A DNA stretch of 64,000 bases from Obrimoposthia wandeli (GCA_977020255.1 CDROCS010001785.1:1-64000); one strand, 5' to 3'; shown: positions 16,570 through 29,949, numbered from the stretch's first letter. Notes: generated by a model from the sequence alone, not told the origin. Numbers and translations: made by a program.

Positions 16570-18825
16570 CCTTAGTAGATATGAAACAATAAATAAACTC
16601 TAATCAAAATAAGAATAAATTATACGTAAAGAAACAATTATATCAATAAAATTTAATGACGTATATTTCAAAATCAAGTCTTTTAAGGTTAATTCATTAC
16701 ATAAAAGGCACATGGACTTTTACTCATATGATTGTTTATCTTAATACAGTTCATTTTTAAAATGTCATATATTTAAAAAGAAGATAGGAACATTTTGGCT
16801 AATTAAATTTATTTAAATTTACCACAATAATAATAATTCAGTTTTCCCAAAATAATTATAAAATTTAGGGCAGTTATAAATGAAAAATTCCAAAACTCAA
16901 TTGTAAGTTCATTACACATGAGCGACATTTTCTATAAACATAATGTCCTTCGTGTTCATAAATTTTATATAATCTTAATATTTAATATTCAAAATTTTGT
17001 ATATTTAAAAAAATTATTTAACATTATTAAATTTAAAGACTTACTTAAAATTTTACTTACATGTTGAGTAAATCTAATGTACAAAAAATGTATTTTAGCA
17101 ATATAGCAATATTTTACTTTGAAATTTTACAAAACTTAAAAAAGCAAAAATAACGAGTAAAATAAGATTAATAAAAAATTTATTATTTGTGTATTAAATA
17201 ATTTTTATATGAAAGAAGCACATTATATAAAAATGAAAATAAATACAAATATAGTATACAGACATTTAAGATGAATATTATTTTTATTTAAATTAACCAC
17301 CATAAAATTTCTATTGCTTTTCTATAAAATTACTTTTATAAAAGTGATTGTTTCTTTTACATTTTTTGTTTGGTAAAATTAAAATGCTTTTTTAAGAAGA
17401 AATGATGAAGTTCAAGGCAGTTATGATAAATGAAAACAGATGGCATGAAATGTAAGTAATCAACCAAATTTACGATTCTTAAATTTAATTATTTTAAAAG
17501 TTAAGATCATATGATTAAAGTGATTATTTTCAAAACACCTTATTTTTAATAATCTTTTTTTAAATGTTAATAACCTAGAAAACGAAAATCTTATCTAAAC
17601 TGACGTATAAATTGTACAAAATATGTTATAACATTATTTTTAAATAAAACTTAATTTTTTTATTTTAGAAACGAAATGTCTTGTAAATCAAATTATGTTA
17701 ACTTTTGGAACATGATAGGGATTTAATATTAATTTTATTCGAATAAAATTTTAACAAAAATAAATGTTTGTTTGAGTAAAATAGTGAACAAAAATAAAAT
17801 TTATGCATAAGTTTGTTTAATAACACAAACCGATCATAAAAACTTAACCTTTAACGGGAAAGTTTAGAGAAAAAGTTCATTTTATGTTTTGTAAAGAATA
17901 TTTAAACTTTTCTATTATAATGTTTCAAATTTCTTTCAATAAATTGTAAAAAAAATCTATTATTAACATTTTTAATGTAAATTTGACAAGATGTGGCCTG
18001 TTAGAAAGCAACATACTAACATTCTCAATCGAGTTCTAAATGTAGTAAATTTTTAAGTTACAGTTTCCAAAATGAATCAAAATATTTCTTCAGAAACTAA
18101 ATTTATACTAGAATTCATAATATTTTAAATTATTACTCTTCACTTCGGGTGGATTTTTTTTTTTAAAACAAATGTATCAAGAATCTTCGAAGCACTTATT
18201 TTATTTGTAAATAATTTTTATATTGTACTCAGGGTATTTCTGTTTTTATTCAAATTTAAGTTATTGATGATAATTGCGTTTAAAAATGTATCTTTATTGT
18301 GTGTTAATTTTTGTCTCACATAGAAGAGTATTTTAATTAAGATTGAAATTCATTTAAAAATTTTAATATAATTTAATAATAATTTATTAAAGTAATAAAA
18401 AATAGGGTAAAAGAGATTTCATGTTTATTTTATAAATATTTTCTTTGATATATAAACGCTAGATTTAGATTAATACGTCTACAAATTGAATATAAATATC
18501 AATATAAAATGATAATTTTTGAGATTTACCAAATGGCGCTTCTAAAAGATATACAATTGAGATGCAATATTAAAAGTAAATCGAAACAAATTTTACCATA
18601 AGTTATCAAAATAAACAAAAAAATTCAAGTACAAATTTCTAAAAATAAGAAGTATACGTCAAACATCAGTGGTATACCGAAGAAATATCACGAAGAATAG
18701 CCGCATTCCGCGACATACTGCATCAGGACTTAACAATACGTGTAAGGTAAGAAACCTATATAAATATTAAGTTTAATTAAAAAGTGCATTCGGTGAACAT
18801 TTTTAGAATCATTTTATTTTGGTCA

Positions 18826-18880
18826 GTTCCCGACCGGCTTATCACCGGTTTCGCCCTGCCGGGCGGCTCATCAGGGAAAC
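18826..18880 (-). ncRNA. type I hammerhead ribozyme (HHR1)
   Basis: Minus strand reads GUUUCC CUGAUGA GCC-GCCCGGCAG-GGC GAA ACCGG-UGAUAAG-CCGGU C^GGGAAC. Core intact; stem I 6 bp, stem II 3 bp with 9-nt loop, stem III 5 bp. GUC cleavage site between 18832 and 18831. Confidence 0.85.
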
Positions 18881-19907
18881 GGCAGGTTATCTCTGACTTC
18901 GCAGTACTTATTTCTGCGAAGCCAGAGATACAAGTGACAGTAGAATGTCACTGTTTGAGATTTGACTGCAGATCGACTGGAATAACTTAGTTCAGTTTGA
19001 TCTGCGATCGAAACAAATTTGATAATATGCGAAATAGCTTTGCAGATCGACTGGACTTCGGTTTCTCTCTACCGCCGCTGCCATCTCTGCATCGCCCATG
19101 CATCCTCCTGCTACCCAGTTGTCTCTGCCCCAGTCACACAACTACTACTGTGTCTTCCACCGATTTGATCAATCGAGTGGCTCCAGGGCTGATGGCTGCT
19201 GCACACGCGATGCTTCTCTCCAGTCTCACTATACTACACTCTGTTGCTGATATTATCTCGTGGTTAGCGACAACAACAATGGCGACTATCCTTGTTGTTG
19301 TTGGATCTGGCAATTACAAGCTGCAGCAGTGCCAGCAGTTCTTCAACCGCTAATACGACAACTTTCAAAATGAATCGTCCTTATGGACTCTGTGTGTGTA
19401 CAGCAACTTTAATTTTCTTCCTACTCTCTCAAACACTTACTCTCTGTTCCATCATGCACTCAATCTCTATTCCATCGTACTTGAATTTGCTGCTCTCGCG
19501 ATTTCACATATTCTCTGCTTGTGCAAGTGGTGCCGCATTGGATACAACAGTTTCGTGTTTGTGTGGTGTATTGGGAGTGGTATGCAGTCGGAAGTTTCTC
19601 CTTCTCTCACAGCACTATTATGTGTAGTTCACCTCTTTTCCCTCATCATGTGTTGGTGTGTCACCACAATATAAGGCAGCAATTCTGCAAGGAAAACAAC
19701 AACATGATAATTGCTAAACCTATCAATAACAATGTACAATTTGCATTTTATGATTATTAAAGCCACTGATCACCATTTTTACCATTTCTTGTTGAAGAAA
19801 AATAAACTGAAGACAAGAAATCTTTTATTGTCAATAAACCCAAAAATTTGATAGTATCGTGACACAAAAAACAAAAACAAAAACTATTATTTCAATATAT
19901 ATATCTA

Positions 19908-20769
19908 TGTAAAAGCAATAAAGAACTAGATATATAACATAAATATCGATTGTTTATAATCATTCCAGATACCTACCGACGTAGAATCGATTTGAAGACA
20001 CTGATTCAGAAGTAATACAGTTGATATAGATTTAGAAGCAATACGGATTTAAAAGTCATATAAATCCAGAAGAGATACAGATTCAGATGTGATACGGATC
20101 AGAGCAACACATCGAAGAGAAACCATTATATAAATATCGGCGGATGAATTGAACTAAGTGTAATAAAGAGATTTGAATTCTCAGTAAAAAAGTAATTGAA
20201 TTGTAATCAAGTGTATTGAACCAAGTGTATTAAAGCGATTTAAATTTGAGGAAAATAATTGGAGTATAGTAAAGCGATTTGAATTGTAGATAAGCAATTC
20301 AAATTTAAGTAAAAGGTATAGTGAATTAAAATCATATTTATTGAGATATCGTAAATAAAACTATAAACGAAAAAAAGTGTCGCAAATTGTTATTTAAATT
20401 AATTCGTACCAGAGATTGTCACCCTACTTTTCTGAAGTTGTAGTTGAGAACACATTTGTTTAAGAGCTCCCCACCTTGTGTATTAAAAATTAATTTAGTT
20501 TTACGAAAAGATCGCATGAATTATATTTTGAAAGATAACTAACCCTCTTGGAACTTTCAGACCCACTAACCTACAGGCTAGACGAGAGCTAACAACGTGA
20601 CGGTGTTCCAAGCCACGGTGTATTCAGAGGATTGTTAAGGCCTGATATATTGGAGGAGCATCGTTAATGTCGCTTGTCTGTAGCTTCGTTTCGTATAGTT
20701 TTGGTCTAGCCTTTAACCAGACCATTTTTGAATTGCTCTTCAAACCAGCCTAACCGGTTCAATACTACA
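19908..20769 (+). mobile_element. probable solo LTR
   Basis: TGTA...TACA termini, TATATAAAT at ~20128, and shared start and end motifs with 2144-2760. No matching TSD found. Confidence 0.55.
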
Positions 20770-21141
20770 ACTGTTGAAAATTAAAATACATGCTCACTGC
20801 ATCGGGATCGAGAGGATCGTATGAATATTTGAATTTTGTGAGATAATACTTTTTGATAATAGGCAGTGTTTTGAAATGTTAAAACATCGAAATATTTGAA
20901 TTTTGGTAAAAAATACTTTTAATAAAAAGTAATATTTTGAATTTACTAACAATGATTGACAAGAAAAAATTAAGCTTAAAAAGTATTAAATAAAAAAAAT
21001 CCATTTAAAAAGAAAAGAAAGTTTAATAAGATTTCTTTAATTAGAAAATTAATTGGATGATTTCCTTTATTAGGGAAATTATTTTTGTTAAAATTCTATG
21101 CACTTTGGCATTTTAGAATGTTTTAGTTAAATAAGTGTACA

Positions 21142-21191
21142 GTCCCCGATAGGCTTAACTGGCTTCGCCTTGCCGGGTTCATCAATGGGAC
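21142..21191 (-). ncRNA. type I hammerhead ribozyme, degenerate copy (HHR2)
   Basis: Minus strand reads GUCCCA UUGAUGA ACC-CGGCAA-GGC GAAG CCAGUUAAGCCUAUC^GGGGAC. Collinear with HHR1 but has core substitutions (C3U, GAAA to GAAG, first stem II G to A) and a broken stem III. Confidence 0.65.
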
Positions 21192-22189
21192 AGCAAGCTT
21201 ATCTTTGGCTTCGCGGTGGGCAAAGCACCCGCAAAGTCAGAGATAAAAAGAGAGGATTTTCCCTCTACCATGTGTCGACAAACAGCATCGACACATGACA
21301 ATAATGTGCATACATACACAAACCAAAACACACACATACAAACATTACATACACCCACTCACATCTACTCACATCTATACTCACTCACCTCTATGTTCTC
21401 TCAGCTACTCTCAGTCTTGTGTATGTGTGTGTATATATTTTATGCAGCACTATTTTCCTCTCTGTCGAGATACGATGCTTGTGGACATATGGACAGTGTG
21501 TGCGGTGGATAGAGCTGATGAAATTTTCCCTACTAATCAGTTTTTGAATCGACACCGGTATGTGTGTGCTGCTATATTGACGCGTACAGACAGCTGTATT
21601 TTGTATTAGTTTTCTTCACTTCTCAGTTTCTGTCTCTGTCCTGAGAGCTTCTATGTATTCTGTCTTGTTTTTCTCGATTTCAGGCCATTTTGTCGATCAA
21701 TAGTCTTGAGGGCTTTACTTTTTCTCTTAGCTTATTCTGCTGTTTTTTCCGATCGCTTCGCACTTTTACTCACACTAATGTTGGCTTATATCATTAATAT
21801 TTTAAGTCAACAACAACTCTTAATTTTAACCCCAAAAATGTATTATTTAATTTTTTTTCTTCTTTTAAGGTTATTATCAGGATATTTTAATTACTATAAA
21901 TATCTTTTATTTATTTCACTTATTCTTATTGCTCTCTGTATGGACCTAACACTATTTATCATTTATTTTATGAACATTTGAAATCACAGCAACTTCCAGA
22001 TACTAAAACTGCAAGTCTCATACCTAGTTTTGATATGGAGCTTAATATTTTTTGGGTATCTAAATTCGTTGTGAAATTTAATGGAGATAAAATATGGTAT
22101 AACATTTATTTGGAATATCAGTAATGTAACAGGAGTCAGCAAAAATAGTGTACACCGCATGATGAGATAAAATAATTAATGAAATATTA

Positions 22190-22236: not shown

Positions 22237-24183
22237 ATCCATGCTCATGCTATTATACATGCTATTGTAAAAAGCAATATATCTTTTCCAATTCTCTATA
22301 TTCTAAATTATTGTAATTATATTTTCATTAATACACTGCAGTACTTAAACTTCTAAATGATTATTTGAACACATTTATTTCAACATATTTGTTTATATAA
22401 AATAAATGATACCTATCTATATGTTGTTTATTTTAAATAAATCTATTAAATAACCTATATATATTTTGTATAAAACTGTCATAAAACAAAAGTATTTTAA
22501 TTGTTTAGAATATTTTGTTTAATGTTCTAAGTAGTTGATTTTAAATAAAACACTAATCATTTTGAAAAATTATTTTTAATATAATACATCACATAATGAG
22601 TGTGATAGGTTTTTTTCAGTGTTTGATTTTTTGTTGTATTTTAAAATATTGTTTTAACTAAAAAGTTGAATATTTTTATAAAATTAAAAGAACATTAATA
22701 TTTTGATATTTTAATAAGAAATAATACGTAAGTTTTCTTAGTTTAAAAAAAATTAAAAATCTCCAAGAAGTTACTATGACATATACATCTAATAGTTTTA
22801 TGGCAGGTGACTAAGGAAATTAAATGCAAAATTAGTTTATGCTTATTTGAAAAAGTATGATATATTTATTATATGGTTCAACTTGATATCCATAGAAAAT
22901 AATTCTGCGGAAAGTGCGAGAAAAAAATTTCCTTTAGAAAATAATAAGGAAAATCGATAAATGTTTTATTGATTATATTTTTCAATTTCACATTTGCAGC
23001 ATCCTTAGTTGTTTCTTGAGTTAATATATCATTTTCAAAGCATTGTAACATGAAGTTAATTACGGTGATTGCACAGGACAGGGAACTATACTTGATTTGC
23101 ATACCAAAGACTCTTTGAAAGAAGTATTTAAAAGTATTTTGTTATAGTACTTTTATACTGAAGAATTGTTCAAAGAAATTTTGTTTATTTCTAAAATTAT
23201 GATAAATCCAATCTTGTTAACACACATTAAAAAATATGGTTCATTGTATACGTTTTGCAAATTTAAACAAGAAATTAATTGACATGCATATGTTGTGCTT
23301 TATTAAATATAAAAATACAAATATTGAAATATAATTTTATTATACACAAAAAAATGACCAGAGGGCTAACAATTATTAGAGTTACTAAAAATATTTTGAC
23401 GATGACAATGGTGATAAAATAAAATAATAAAATAATCAAAATTAAATAAAAATGGAACTGATTTTGAAAAATGATATAGTTTATGCTGGCATACCATAAT
23501 TTTTTATTACCGAAATTTCAGGATTTATATACTCTCTCATTTACACGCTGTGCCCGGGTTTTCCTGGTGGGGCTTTTGATTTACATTAGTTTAATCTAAA
23601 TGGGGTTTGTCTATCAATATTAATACTTAATTAGATTCTATTGGGTAACCTGTTAGTATTTGCCTGCTAGTATTGCAAAGTTTTATCTACTTCTTATACT
23701 TTAGGACTTTTTTACCCAAATGTGTGATTTTGATGAGCCGTACATATTTTAATTGGAATTAATTTATGCTTTAAATTGATGTTTTGTTAATTTATGTGCG
23801 ACTTTTAGATGTCTAAAAAGTCTTCATTAAAGTTTAATTAGTTAACGTTTTAATTAACAAAAATCACATTTTTGTAGATCATTCTTAATACAAAAGTTGA
23901 AAAACTTTCGAGCATACGTGAAATAAATCGTTTTTTTATTGCTAATTTATGTGTAGTTCAGATTTTTAAATAAGGTCTTCCTTTAAAAAGTTATTCGTAA
24001 AAAAATGATTTCTACATAAAATGAATTAATATTTTAAACCTATTTTTTTTTGTGGGTCACTAAGTTACTTTTTAATTAGTAGCTTTGTTGGGTTATTAAA
24101 TAAAAATAATTAATTTTTGTCAATTTAAATTGACATTTAATATTTATCAAAAATGCCCACAATTAGGGAGGTTTTCAAGTTCA

Positions 24184-24233
24184 GCCTCCGACGGGGTGGT
24201 CCCGTTTCGCCCTGCCAGGCTCGTCAGGAAGGC
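24184..24233 (-). ncRNA. type I hammerhead ribozyme, canonical (HHR3)
   Basis: Minus strand reads GCCUUC CUGACGA GCCU-GGCA-GGGC GAA ACGGG-ACCAC-CCCGU C^GGAGGC. All core nucleotides present and all three helices paired. GUC cleavage site between 24190 and 24189. Confidence 0.9.
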
Positions 24234-24618
24234 GTCGAGGAAGGTGGTTAGCGGAATGGATTTTTTTCTCGCGAGTGTAAATTGACATTTAATTTTTATG
24301 ACTGGAGATTACTGCCCAGATCTATCTGCTGCCAATGCGAATATGCACATGTGTTTGTGCTGAAACCCATATGCAGATATGCACACACATGCGGAGGTCG
24401 TCCGACTGATACAATAGAGCATTGGATTCTACAAATTCTGAAGCCAGTGCATGTGTTTCTTGACATTTGGCGAGGAGTGGGCGATTTCGATAATCTGAAC
24501 GTCCTGACTGTGTGTCGTCCCTGATTTTCTCGGTTCATGTGTTTAACAAGAATATAAGCTAAAACACAATTTTTCTAAAACACAACTTTTCAACCTGAAA
24601 CAGAATTTATTTGAACCG

Positions 24619-24976
24619 CAGAAAAATATATTTGAAACTATTTATCCACTTCTCACAGAAAAATATATTTGAAACTATTTATCCACTTCTTAAAAATATA
24701 TTTGAAACTATTTATCCACTTCTCACAGAAAAATATATTTGAAACTATTTATCCACTTCTCACAGAAAAATATATTTGAAACTATTTATCCACTTCTCAC
24801 AGAAAAATATATTTGAAACTATTTATCCACTTCTCGCAGAAAAATATATTTGAAACTATTTATCCACTTCTCGCAGAAAAATATATTTGAAACTATTTAT
24901 CCACTTCTCGCAGAAAAATATATTTGAAACTATTTATCCACTTCTCGCAGAAAATTTATTTGAAACCATTTATCCA
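24619..24976. repeat. 37-bp minisatellite, ~10 copies
   Basis: Unit CAGAAAAATATATTTGAAACTATTTATCCACTTCTC(A/G), head to tail with no spacers. One unit is shortened and the last is degenerate. Confidence 0.95.
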
Positions 24977-26454
24977 ATTATATGAAAGTTTGTTGAGTTG
25001 CAATTGTTGGATTTCCCGTCCAACAAATTTAAGTTATTAACAGCTTTATATTTTTTGGATTATCATTTTAATTTTTTTGTTACTTTTATGTTTATTTAAG
25101 TTTAACTTTAACACATATAATGAAATGTTGGTTAAATTAATTAATAGTTATATAATATTAAATCGAAAATTTAAATATTTTATTTATTTATTCTAATCTT
25201 TCTAAAATTTTTCAGATCTTCAATTGTTGAAATGTTTACTGCCCTCTTCCATTTCATAAATTATTTGCGTAAATTTATGTATTCAATGTTAAATAAGTTA
25301 GAATATACAAAGTATTTATTGAATTAGTTTGATTTTGTAAACAATTTGAAAAACACACCTTGAATGAATATAATATATTTTATTTAAATGACCTTTTTAA
25401 ATACTATTAGATAGCCATGTCTTATTGTGTTCATTTATAATTTGAAACATTAATTTTTATTTAGTAACTTTAATCAATTATTTTTTTTGAAACATTATTG
25501 CTTTTGGTTTCATTATTTTGTCAAGTTCCGAATGAATCAAGTATGCAATTGTTTTTATCTTTTGTTAAAACGTGTTTTTAATTAGGTTATAAACACTCAG
25601 CCTGGTTAGTGAAGCATTTTATTTAATTTTTAAAAATTGTTTCTAAATACATAGTATATTATTTAATTATAACTAATATTTGTCTTTATATGATAAAGTG
25701 GGGTTTTGATGATTTGTTTAACTTTGTTTTAGTCTGTAAATGAATATTTAGAAAGGCAAAATGAGTTTATCAACTGTGGGACTCTGACTTGTGATTTGAG
25801 AAGGTTTATAGATATTTCGTTATGAATGAATATGAAAAGTTTAAATATTTTTCATCTCCATCGTCACTCGATGAATTTCTGCGCTTATTATCATTTAAAA
25901 GTAAAAAAATGATTTTTAATATACATTTCGGTAATGTTGGAGCAAGTTCTGCCGATATTCGCGTATCTTGCGAGGGTTGAGTAGGCTGTAGCTCTCTTGG
26001 TTTCAGTTGAGCCTCCAGGGACATCTCACAGAACATATGCAACTGTTCCTGTGTGTCTAGGGTTGTTATTTCACTGCCACTGTCCTCTTCACGCTGCTGA
26101 TCTATGTCGCAAATCAAGTTTTAGCAGAAAAAACACTTTCATGGACTCGATGAAGCCCCAAGGAGCAAATGAGCCAGCAACAACACATCGGAATAATAAC
26201 ATGAACAGCAGCATATTTGATTAGCGCTGATGTATGATGCATCTGTGATTGATTACTCAAAAGCGCGTCCAGTTTGCTGTCACTCTTCTCCCTTAATCTT
26301 TCATTTTGTTTTCACCGCTGTTACAGTTTCTTCCATCCAAAGATAAACCGTTGACCAATCCTAAGATGCATGCACGTGCTCACTGCACCAGGCTCGATAA
26401 GATTGTATCCATAATTGGGCTGTTGTGAGAGAATTCATTTATGATAATAATTGG

Positions 26455-27420
26455 GAGCTGGAAATCAATTCTGGTATTGGTCGGTAGCCAATGGAGCTTC
26501 ATTAGATGTACAGTTGTAATAAAACTTTTGTTTATTTTGAATATAATTCTGTCAGTTTGGTTTAAAACTGTTTACAAGCGATATAATTGAGGCAGGATTT
26601 TACACATAGAATTTATACAGAGAATTTAATTTCTTTTGAAAGTGTTGAAGACCTTAAAGTCACATTTAAGAAATTTTTGGATATTCTAGTTAATAGTAAG
26701 ATACAAGTTTATACAAAAACAATACATTTAACTATGATTTATTCAAAAGCACTTCCTGTTTTCCATTATTCTTTGTAATGTTTTCTGAACAGTAAAGTTT
26801 TCAACAATGTTACAGTTTCTTGTCTAAGTCGGACAATTGTTGTTAAGATTTGAAGCATAATTTGCGATCGTATAAATATTTGAGCTTTGTGAGAGAATAC
26901 ATTTTTGATAAAAACATGATATTGAAATCAATTCTGGCCAATGGAGTTTCATTAAATATTCACTTGTACTAACAATTTTCTCTAATTTGAATATAATTCC
27001 GAAGGCTTTGTTTATCATTTTGTGTAAGTGATTTAATTGATAAGCTGGAATATTGAACAGTAAAGAATTTTGAAAATCCAGCCATGATGTAATAATCGCA
27101 TGTGTTAGCAGTTTAGTTGTCACGAGTAGTAAAGGATTTTCTTATTAGTTAAATCCTTAATATGACCTTTGCTTTATTTTGCTTTTTTCTTTAATACTGT
27201 TCTTAGGAACTCTTTATCGAGCCAAAGTAATAGATCCAAATAATATAGCCACAGTTTTATTTCAAATGTCTTCATTTCATCCATGTAGCTATTTCATATT
27301 CATTAGAATCACAATCAACACAAAGTTGTGTGTCATCAGCATAAGGGGAGAAATGAATATTATATTTCTTATTAATCGCTGCGATTGACGAAATATAAAT
27401 CGAAAATAGGTATTCAGAAT
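26455..27420 (-). mobile_element. L2/CR1-type LINE, reverse transcriptase C-terminal fragment
   Basis: HFSPYADDTQL (YADD at 27343-27332), then TKLLTHAIITSWLDFQNSLLFNIPAYQLNHLHK..LHWP, and a second LMKLHWLPTNTRIDF at ~26500. Confidence 0.85.
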
Positions 27421-29949
27421 AGGAAGTTTTACACATTAAAGCCGACCTTTACCGATATATTATTTTTCCACAAGCATATTCAGTCATTTCTGTGATGTAC
27501 TAAATGTAAATATATTGACTTACTACTGTATTCCGCAACCGGGTATTACTGTATATTAAATGTCAATGGTAGATTGTAGGGTGGGATACTGGTGTATATC
27601 TTAAGCAACGATAGATGGAAGATCTGTGTCGTGTCGGTACCGCTCACGATCATGTTTGCGAAGAACTTATGTATTTTATATTTGAAGAGAAAAATCTACG
27701 CCTACCTATTTTATCTCTCGCTAATAAATTCATCGTCAAATACGCTTGTTAGAAGATGTAAGACGAGTATTCAATACAAATTTTTATCCTTTAATTGTCA
27801 GCAAACAATCTCGAATATACACATCCCCCTTTTAAAAGCTTTACGGCCATTCTAAGAACATTTTATAAACTCTTTTTCTACCAATAAGTCCACCTCAAGC
27901 TACTCATTTTTTAGATTAATTTAGATTGTATCTGTTATAGTATGAAATTGCCTTTGCATAGGAACGCGACGCTGCAAAGCATGTTGAAGCTACATACTCA
28001 ATTCTTTTACCAAATTGGTTTCAAAGCTCTTTTTTATATCCATATGTTTGATTCTTTAAGCTCCAACATTTTCAGATTTTCAGTCAATTAGTAATGGTTC
28101 TTTCATCTTGAGTTTTGATGGCATATCCTTTGAACTTATTGTTGTAACTTCAGAGAGGTCAGAGATATCGCCAAAAATGGATTCACCAAATATGTGCTAT
28201 TACAAAATTAGTATTTATCAAATAAAACGATTAAAAAATTCAGATAATAAAATATTGCCAAATTTCAAATGGATTTTCTAACGTCACTCACTTAATATCG
28301 AATATGCCGAGCAATTTTTATAATGCAAAAGCTATAGGGAATCTAAAGAGCGATCGTTTACTTACTTTAGAAAGAGAAGAATCCCATCATAGAATCACAA
28401 CACTGAAAAGACCCCTGCACAATAAAGGGAAAAATAAACTTACTGCTTGTGTTATTTTTCACCTCAAAACCACTAAGTTAACTCAAGATTCAATGGACTT
28501 AAGAAACTATTTCAGGAAGCTATCGAAGCATCACAATTTATGTTCAGACGATTTATTATTTTTCAAATAAGCGCAAAATTAGTTTGAGAAGTTAAAATAC
28601 ATCACCACTGAGATAACTACAATGCTAATGCGTCCCATTATTACTTCAAGACTAGATTTTCAAACATTTTTACTGATTAACATTCCAGTTAATAAATTGA
28701 ATCACCGTCAGAATTATATTCAAATTAAAGAAAAGTCCTGGTACAACTGAACATTCTACGAAACTCCATTCAAGATTCTTCATATTATCAAAAGTGTATT
28801 ATCTCACAAAAGCACAAAAAATTATATGACCTTCTCGAACCTGGTGCAGTTAGCATCTTATCTTATCTGCAGATTGGCCAACAATCTATCAATGAATATC
28901 ACAAACTATAACAGATTGGAAAGTTTCAAGAAGCAAGCGAAGACCTTGTTATTCAGAAAATATCACGAAGAACAAGCGCTCTTGAGAAATGAACCATAGA
29001 TTTGATTTGTTGGATATTAGTGCTATATTAAATATATTTGAACACCCAAACTTTCAAATCATCGTTTTAGCACCTCCTTTAAATTTGTAGAAAGTTGAAG
29101 TGGGTTATGTCAACTGCTTCAGGATGTTTTTCACAAGTTTTCTTGAACCACCAAGATTTGAGTGTAACTCCTGAAAAACCTAACCAAAATCGATAAATTG
29201 TAAGGTAATGTGCCAAAAGGATAAATTTATAAGACTTGTTTCACCTAGACTATCAAAATACTTCGAAATACCCCGAAAAAATGACCGAAAGTTCTAGGAT
29301 TCGCTAATGTTATAGAAACTCGGCTCTTCAAGATGTGTAGTGCCAGATTGTTCATTGCATTGCCATCAAGCATAGAAACTCCAGAAATACCGACACAGTG
29401 TTCAGCGTCTCTGGTCAGCTACTGGCGATAAAGTATGTTATGCTGGTGTAGAAATAAAATTGTTAACTAAAGTTGAGTTTGTCAACTATAATAGTCGTTA
29501 ATAAATCCATAAGTTTGTTAGGAGAGTAGCTGTTTGCATAATTTGCAAAAGTAACCCAATCGTTTTGGCTTCATTGTGGGAGTGAAAAGTATGTCTTGGG
29601 GTTGAACCACATTTTTGCCCGTTGACTGAATTCTGTCACTCACAAATCGGTCTCAGTCAAGTTGAGTTTACTTCTGTGCATATAGGAGAAAATCAATGAA
29701 TCATATCAGTCAGATTAATATCCATGTTTCATGGTTGCGACTTATCGATCGAGTTCACGAGGGAGAAAATTGGGATTGCTTATTTGGGGAATTTCCTGTT
29801 TCGGCGACTGAGATGCCTATCTCTCCCCAATACACACATACATCCATTGTCGATAGCTCTACATGGTCACAATATCGATATTTTGAAGATATATTCTTTC
29901 TTTTTTAGTATTTTTCATATTTTTTAAAACTAGCACTTATAACTACCAT

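Follow-up and report, generated by a model that had tools for sequence, protein, structure and literature searches.

Antisense type I hammerhead motifs in the long terminal repeats of a coding, envelope-bearing Gypsy-like family of Obrimoposthia wandeli

Overview

A stretch of 64,000 nucleotides from Obrimoposthia wandeli (GCA_977020255.1, CDROCS010001785.1:1-64000; the window) carries three hammerhead ribozyme (HHR) motifs on its minus strand, HHR1, HHR2 and HHR3. Together with their relatives across the genome, they belong to a group of type I hammerheads that lie in the long terminal repeats (LTRs) of a coding, envelope-bearing, Gypsy-like retroelement family, antisense to its open reading frames (ORFs). 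This is the larger result and it goes beyond the helix between the 5' arm of the ribozyme and loop II that a first-pass annotation had reported for HHR1 and HHR2. On balance, we lean to the reading that these hammerheads occupy the U3 side of the LTR, dock through a conserved 3-bp contact between arm and loop II, and cut antisense transcripts.

The host element

The hammerhead matches occur as same-orientation pairs 13-27 kb apart. In all seven LTR pairs that were fetched, direct repeats enclose ORFs on the strand opposite to the ribozyme. The spacing is 13-16 kb in five of the seven; the two longer elements (22 and 27 kb) appear to contain inserted DNA. The repeats of a pair are 94-99% identical (six pairs listed) and 4-bp target duplications flank five of the six elements tested. 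Positions are numbered such that -1 to -12 run 5' from C3, II1-II12 form stem-loop II, and 1.1 onward follow the cut site. C3 lies 106-147 nt from the 5' TGTT start of the LTR in the seven paired elements, and 82 of the 90 sampled copies have a motif resembling an LTR end no more than 230 nt from the cut site. The direct LTRs, TG...CA ends and short target duplications of Ty3/Gypsy elements are thus all present. Across 210 loci, some of them duplicated, element proteins are encoded opposite to the ribozyme in 47 and on the same strand in three.

Sixteen open frames were scanned against Pfam. They contain a Monjiviricetes fusion glycoprotein, a protease, a reverse transcriptase (RT), an RNase H, an integrase and, in a frame near the 3' LTR, an RNase_T exonuclease. 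The order protease, RT, RNase H, integrase is that of Ty3/Gypsy elements, and the named homologues include Ty3 Gag-Pol at 42-43%. None of the 16 frames matched a Pfam gag, a GIY-YIG domain, or the BIR, MATH, BCL2 and ankyrin cargo of Burro elements; CCHC motifs suggest that a gag is present. The glycoprotein is in frame between gag and pol, with one frame running from the CCHC-bearing region into the glycoprotein and another from the end of the glycoprotein into the protease. An ORF that follows the integrase (L098:6118-7350, minus strand; L095:2299-3810) has a hydrophobic N-terminal stretch and no Pfam match, and is possibly a second membrane protein. The element on C528 also holds a fragment of a hAT-type transposase (Pfam Dimer_Tnp_hAT, L092:4477-6503).

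A sequence resembling a primer-binding site (PBS), TGGTGAGC, follows the 5' LTR in four of the seven elements; the one pattern searched for a priming tRNA gave no match. The purine run before the 3' LTR is short. In six contigs (G000 C377, C281, C1824, C2271, C604 and C1191) the DNA 5' of the 3' LTR lacks a clear polypurine tract and shows a conserved short palindrome, then a pyrimidine-rich run, AGGAT and the LTR.

A Penelope, Terminon or Polinton origin, suggested by flanking frames, was rejected in view of the LTR pairs and the Gypsy domains. Frames resembling Polinton/Maverick integrase, ATPase and minor capsid proteins stand beside LTR insertions at L013, L016, L027, L087 and L105; we take these Polinton-like frames to be neighbours of the insertions.

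The ribozyme family

A pattern of core plus stem II has at least 7,436 exact matches genome-wide and none in a reversed control. Candidate relatives number 661 for HHR1, 1,674 for HHR2 and 1,703 for HHR3, and 40 were scored for each. The family has a 6-bp stem I, a 4-bp stem II, a GGCA tetraloop and conserved GCC and UGA flanks. The sample consists of 90 copies from the first 100 places among 6,394 pattern matches. GGCA, the first three pairs of stem II and a non-G at -12 were required by this pattern, so the loop is invariant in the sample by design. A tree was made of 88 copies, two having been dropped for a misassigned site or a deletion, and formal pair counts used 65 sequences (60 distinct), namely 62 of these 88 and the three window copies.

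Stem II pair 4 holds in all 90 copies (45 C-G, 44 U-A, 1 U-G); the pattern had fixed Y and R at these places and not their combination. Stem I pair 6 holds in 89/90 (67 G-C, 21 A-U). Stem I pair 2 is U-G in 54 copies and C-G in 33, an alternation that is valid solely on the hammerhead strand. There are 96 two-sided changes in the canonical fold of the 65 sequences. Watson-Crick extension of stem I outward from -7:1.7 was considered and rejected, as -7:1.7 pairs in 1/90 copies and -9:1.9 in 2/90, with only -8:1.8 pairing.

An alternative is a passenger hammerhead that entered the LTR in a single capture, from a retrozyme, a Penelope-like element or a microbe, and has been kept by copying or by promoter constraints at the DNA level without any role as RNA. 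Many palindromes lie nearby in the LTRs, the hairpin upstream of the ribozyme has wobbles on both strands (56 versus 41), identical stem II and loop sequences exist in phage hammerheads, and independent compensatory events are few. Against this, variation at N7 contrasts with conserved core letters, and all three stems show two-sided changes across clades A and B and families X and Y. UGA after stem I is kept in 86-88/90 copies while its neighbours vary, and on the tree the flanking columns change 10-17 times, compared with 0-5 for the arm GCC and UGA. The G.U pairs of stem I are, moreover, strand-specific. We regard a pure passenger as quite improbable.

The arm and loop II contact

The arm letters G-9, C-8 and C-7 are present in 84, 88 and 89 of the 90 copies, and U1.7 in 87. 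The helix between arm and loop II across families appears to be a 3-bp one, GCC of the arm with GGC of loop II, its pairs kept in 84-90 of 90 copies. C-8 and U1.7 fit, at the sequence level, the loop-loop motif UNmYN/RNnA described by Dufour et al. (PMC2632901). A U next to residue 1.6 forms a Hoogsteen pair with the last A of loop II in Chi et al. 2008 (PMC2553840; this pair also in PMC2632901), and base-paired contacts between stems I and II, tied in type III hammerheads to a two-pair difference between the stems, are described in PMC3088659. By analogy, the three pairs together with U1.7 and the last A of the loop likely represent a known kind of activating stem I/II contact. Family X keeps U1.7 together with its RUAA loop.

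The pattern GCC plus GGCA, without UGA, was found at nine metagenome and four viral loci, which reduce to eight distinct type III hammerheads. These have a 6-bp stem I and a 7-nt loop 1 of the form U-n-n-n-GCC that begins with UGA in 6/8. The ribozyme of the LTRs resembles this module with loop 1 opened. With a loop-neutral pattern there were 177 matches, 126 of them distinct, 81 with perfect stems and 23 with a true heptaloop. These 23 are distinct type III hammerheads of prokaryotes or phages, in which stem I has 6 bp and a 7-nt loop and stem II has 4 bp and a tetraloop. The last three letters of loop 1 pair with the first three of loop 2 in 11 of the 23 (3.5 after shuffling, p=5e-5), or in 5 of 17 when counted by distinct class (1.6 expected, p=0.004), and other registers pair in only 1-2 of 23. 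The variants are GCC/GGC, GCU/AGC, ACG/CGU, UUU/AAA and UUU/GAA. Phage type I hammerheads (127 loci, inspected by eye) showed no consistent 3-bp register and were not counted. This covariation in phages and bacteria, with the published structures, suggests that the contact forms and would speed cleavage. It would be a modest and ordinary docking contact, apparently common to animal type I and phage type III hammerheads.

The phage and metagenome type III loci with identical stem II and GGCA loop (L311-L323) are often followed directly by a stretch rich in purines and an ATG, and two hammerheads occur on some of their contigs. Family X (L142-L161) is an older LTR family with a U-rich arm and an RUAA loop; its hammerhead has a possible distal stem I beyond an internal loop and is nearer to the classical type I layout.

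The first-pass annotation had described a longer, 7-bp helix, shared by HHR1 and HHR2 and covarying between them, as either an activating pseudoknot or a competing, inhibitory fold. The four 7-mers are indeed present on the minus strand, CCUGCCG and CGGCAGG in HHR1 and CUUGCUG and CGGCAAG in HHR2 (Table 1). From base composition, the probability of a 7/7 match at a given register is about 0.0005-0.001; HHR1 and HHR2 do not count as two independent observations because they are related copies of one subclade. The 7-mer called loop II contains the GGCA tetraloop, and its other three letters (II4, II9 and II10) belong to stem II. Likewise the arm is a flank 5' of stem I except for its last letter (-6), which forms the sixth stem I pair.

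The two changes that had been read as covariation do not stand among the 29 relatives of HHR2, which include one duplicate of the same locus. At the position of the C-G to U-A change, 24/29 have G on the loop side and 5/29 have A, and in HHR2 itself this A breaks stem II pair 4. For the C-G to U-G wobble, arm -7 is C in 22/29 and U in 7/29. The difference between HHR1 and HHR2, as judged from these alignments, is one family-level C/U difference opposite G plus decay of HHR2. The complete helix is found in just 11/90 sampled copies. Its pairs hold, from outer to inner, in 68, 65, 24, 84, 90, 90 and 69 of 90, so that the pair of -10 with the loop A is broken in 66. The larger alignment also failed to bear out covariation: the canonical fold is 97.1% paired, the 7-bp helix alone 79.5% (65 sequences). 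Across lineages there are five independent contrasts at II9, in which arm -11 follows in 0.4 on average and II4 in 4.0; five are too few for significance, and the independent-pair tests had 1-5 contrasts. A search of the genome for compensatory loop II variants (the first 100 places each of 622, 231, 419 and 364) gave mostly single decayed copies, plus families X and Y. The 7-bp helix is thus best described as a subclade extension combined with HHR2 decay, with no support as a family feature. An activating role is likely for the three central pairs, and these do not extend to seven across the family.

The three copies in the window

All three hammerheads are inside solo LTRs flanked by 4-bp duplications, the second LTR being tentative (Table 1). 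The first 310 nt of solo LTR 1 match the LTRs of full elements, and the window shows no coding sequence of the element. A strict type I scan of the window gave two matches, with cores at 18874 (HHR1) and 24227 (HHR3); HHR2 (core at 21185) was missed because its core is altered. At the gathering score Rfam had no hammerhead match in the window, its best match being HH9 at 18.9 bits, under the threshold of 52.

The type I features, namely CUGANGA, GAAA, NUH, three stems and an open stem I, are all seen in HHR3 and in the family. HHR2 departs from the type I core and from the commonest letter among its 29 relatives at C3 (24/29), G10.1 (22/29) and A15.1 (27/29). Stem II of HHR1 has 3 extra nt, present in 2 of 30 loci (HHR1 and its duplicate L029), and because of this insertion G12 is paired in the predicted fold; one further locus has a 4-nt insertion. 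HHR3 has private changes at arm -8 (C in 29/29 relatives) and at II4 (C in 28/29). The three are solo-LTR relics, with HHR2 probably dead, HHR1 probably impaired and HHR3 probably slowed.

Table 1. Hammerheads, their parts and the solo LTRs of the window
Feature	Position	Strand	Remarks
Solo LTR 1	18765..19939	+ (ORF-strand orientation)	ends TATT...AACA; 4-bp duplication TAAA on both sides
HHR1, type I hammerhead	18823..18883	-	C17 at 18832; UGA 18825-18823
HHR1 arm GCC; stem I; core	18883-18881; 18880-18875/18831-18826; 18874-18868	-	
HHR1 stem II with 3-nt insertion; stem III	18867-18853; 18849-18833	-	
HHR1 5' arm CCUGCCG	18880..18886	-	only GCC (18883-18881) conserved across families; G18880 is in stem I pair 6
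HHR1 "loop II" CGGCAGG	18855..18861	-	stem II pair-4 letter, GGCA tetraloop, two stem II 3' letters
Long hairpin directly 5' of HHR1	18889..18930	-	typical of clade A; wobble polarity mixed
Solo LTR 2 (tentative ends)	20953..21812	+	duplication ACAA, within a CAA-rich stretch
HHR2, decayed type I hammerhead	21139..21197	-	core, stem II, stem III and A15.1 altered
HHR2 arm; HHR2 loop	21197-21191; 21175-21169	-	
Solo LTR 3	24086..25042	+	ends TGTT...AACA; 4-bp duplication GCTT; holds a 37-nt tandem array
HHR3, type I hammerhead	24181..24236	-	core and stems intact; middle pair of the 3-bp contact broken
Downstream CCUCC segment	24167..24171	-	pairable with stem I 3' strand; clade B feature

The tandem array of solo LTR 3 has about 11-13 copies of its unit (24548-25028), and the LTRs of other subfamilies have different tandem units. 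The HHR1-HHR2 region is duplicated at G000 C870:262468-267915 (L029, L032) with 95-96% identity, the HHR1 insertion being shared; this is a second haplotype or a segmental duplication. Long inverted repeats with arms of 66-94 nt (77-82%) at 26374-28975, related to a repeat at 20788-20944, are probably another mobile element.

Antisense cleavage and its alternatives

Only antisense RNA should be cleavable by the motif, because genomic RNA is its complement and minus-strand DNA lacks the 2'-OH. We infer that selection must therefore act on antisense RNA, which could arise from a divergent LTR promoter or from host read-through. Contigs of four sequencing runs of unspecified kind from a single sample, aligned to one LTR, gave neither usable ends nor a strand. 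Stem I would be docked on loop II by the GCC/GGC contact together with a predicted pair between U1.7 and the loop A, and cleavage would likely hit antisense transcripts near the LTR edge. Within the 3' LTR, cleavage is expected some 75-190 nt ahead of the internal region; the fragment downstream of the cut would have no cap, and antisense or double-stranded RNA across the coding sequence would be limited in this way. In a 5' or solo LTR, cleavage would terminate transcripts that run out into host DNA. One possible but doubtful use is counter-silencing, in which read-through or divergent antisense transcripts would be cut at the LTR before the coding region. This would starve PIWI-interacting RNA (piRNA) or double-stranded RNA pathways and help the family to reach thousands of copies.

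Instead of removing a transcript, the ribozyme could set the defined end of a functional antisense RNA. This might be a short, structured RNA of the LTR whose 3' end is a cyclic phosphate, or an RNA with a 5'-OH that is translated cap-independently or shielded by a hairpin at its terminus. In clade A the ribozyme is preceded by long hairpins; in clade B, 88 of 89 copies have a downstream segment able to pair with the stem I 3' strand, and corresponding changes are seen in families X and Y; and the exonuclease is encoded beside the 3' LTR. A link between viral type I hammerheads and translation initiation is described in PMC13725137. Near the cut site, no antisense ORF is shown to be conserved, the only overlapping frames listed being far away, and the downstream hairpin is weak in A2 (5/51), with shuffled clade B windows reaching the cutoff in 66%. 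A functional product is, on this evidence, unlikely. The CCUCC of clade B is a candidate product-release or blocking hairpin. The segment 15-25 nt 3' of stem I (e.g. L061-L090, L146, L217) changes with stem I across B, X and Y, and resembles a repeat of the stem I 5' strand plus the start of the core.

Several points weigh against docking and antisense cleavage as we read them. First, self-cleavage at position 17 and antisense transcription are both predictions, and a cut in antisense U3 would leave the R-U5 part unprotected from antisense RNA. Second, the pairs of the contact are nearly invariant in this genome, which is conservation and not covariation, in a sample conditioned on GGCA; C-8 could instead pair with G1.8 (C-G in 84/90), which would also explain its conservation. 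Third, arm and loop change together in family X, where the middle pair is U.U in 8/8 and the first pair fails in 2/8, and the listed copies with a changed loop letter mostly retain GCC, a decay-like behaviour that gives no support for the contact. Fourth, 12 of the 23 phage or bacterial cases are without the 3-bp pairing, and the 11 positives include relatives. Finally, the -11:II9 pair of the longer helix shows some association (mutual information 0.30), and the six pairs from -12 to -7 are intact in 23 of 28 copies of subclade A2, mostly through C/U changes opposite G.

The last point speaks for a 6-bp helix between arm and loop in A2, the subclade of the HHR1 and HHR2 families. It could be a pseudoknot, with stem II reduced to 2 bp, or a rival hairpin by which cleavage is tuned. 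By comparison with H-type pseudoknots, 2 nt can reasonably span a 6-bp helix as a linker. In L004 the alternative hairpin is 3.8 kcal/mol above the named canonical fold (ViennaRNA, without pseudoknot scoring, the rival fold being scored as a hairpin only). In PMC3088659 a type II hammerhead that combines a single stem II pair with a 6-bp pseudoknot is active, and the human C10 hammerhead requires a pseudoknot of 5 bp. Outside A2 the six pairs are intact in only 1/72 clade B and 0/22 A1 copies (122 copies with A2, in mixed and partly selected samples), and A1 includes the largest cluster of the sample (15/90). Within A2 no change at family level affects both sides, C/U exchanges are also the most frequent type of mutation, and the helix would open a stem II pair that covaries across other families. 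Such a helix is accordingly judged rather unlikely, and the 3-bp contact with cleavage of antisense transcripts is the reading we retain.

There are thousands of these hammerheads, with full architecture and at a fixed place in the LTR. They lie on the strand unused for replication of the element, so the target RNA and the cut site are precisely predicted.

Comparison with known systems

Base-paired stem I/II contacts also characterize the pseudoknotted hammerheads of Perreault et al. 2011 (PMC3088659). In the present family only three pairs persist, compared with the covarying helix of at least four pairs by which those are recognized, and the ribozyme is a type I hammerhead of an animal repeat with a 4-bp stem II and a tetraloop. 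The figures or supplements of that paper may already show the 3-bp module or these repeats. The UNmYN/RNnA and Chi et al. motifs (PMC2632901, PMC2553840) are resembled in U1.7, the penultimate pyrimidine, and the purine start and A end of loop II; here, however, the open end of stem I divides loop 1 in two, and there are three additional Watson-Crick pairs.

Known hosts of hammerheads are plant non-coding LTR retrozymes, Penelope-like elements, Terminons and animal tandem retrozymes (PMC4918200, PMC4209133, PMC7229834, PMC8557442). In the literature searched, which excluded subscription papers and Repbase, the available texts hold no report of hammerheads in the LTRs of coding LTR retrotransposons or of an antisense LTR ribozyme. 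Plant LTR retrozymes (PMC4918200, PMC7761336) share the hammerhead inside LTRs, the 4-bp duplications, the PBS, solo LTRs and a Ty3/Gypsy link. They are non-coding, mostly type III and 0.6-1 kb long, and produce circular RNAs from the ribozyme strand (Cervera et al. 2016, PMC4918200). The elements described here are coding, with LTR pairs 13-27 kb apart and a type I ribozyme opposite to both the ORFs and the PBS, so that neither the non-coding interior nor the ribozyme on the PBS strand is found.

Penelope-like elements, Terminons and animal non-LTR retrozymes (PMC4209133, PMC7229834, PMC8557442, 10.64898/2026.07.22.740005) likewise have type I hammerheads in animal retroelements, and Terminons also carry DEDD exonucleases. 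The family described here differs in having true LTRs, an integrase and a full stem III, and no tandem repeats of 170-400 nt; with no GIY-YIG in the 16 frames scanned, the Penelope-like combination of RT with GIY-YIG, pseudo-LTRs and a minimal hammerhead is not seen.

Among LTR elements, the available text on rotifer elements does not contain "ribozyme" or "HHR" (PMC5408684), nor does that on Burro mention a hammerhead (PMC6431247). Rotifer LTR elements carry env or DEDDy ORFs, and Juno and Vesta resemble the present family in their extra ORF for a DEDD-type exonuclease (PMC5408684). Burro/GYPSM1, a planarian Gypsy, has a fusion glycoprotein in frame between gag and pol as here; it exceeds 30 kb and carries BIR, MATH, BCL2 and ankyrin cargo, whereas the hammerhead-bearing element is about half that size (PMC6431247).

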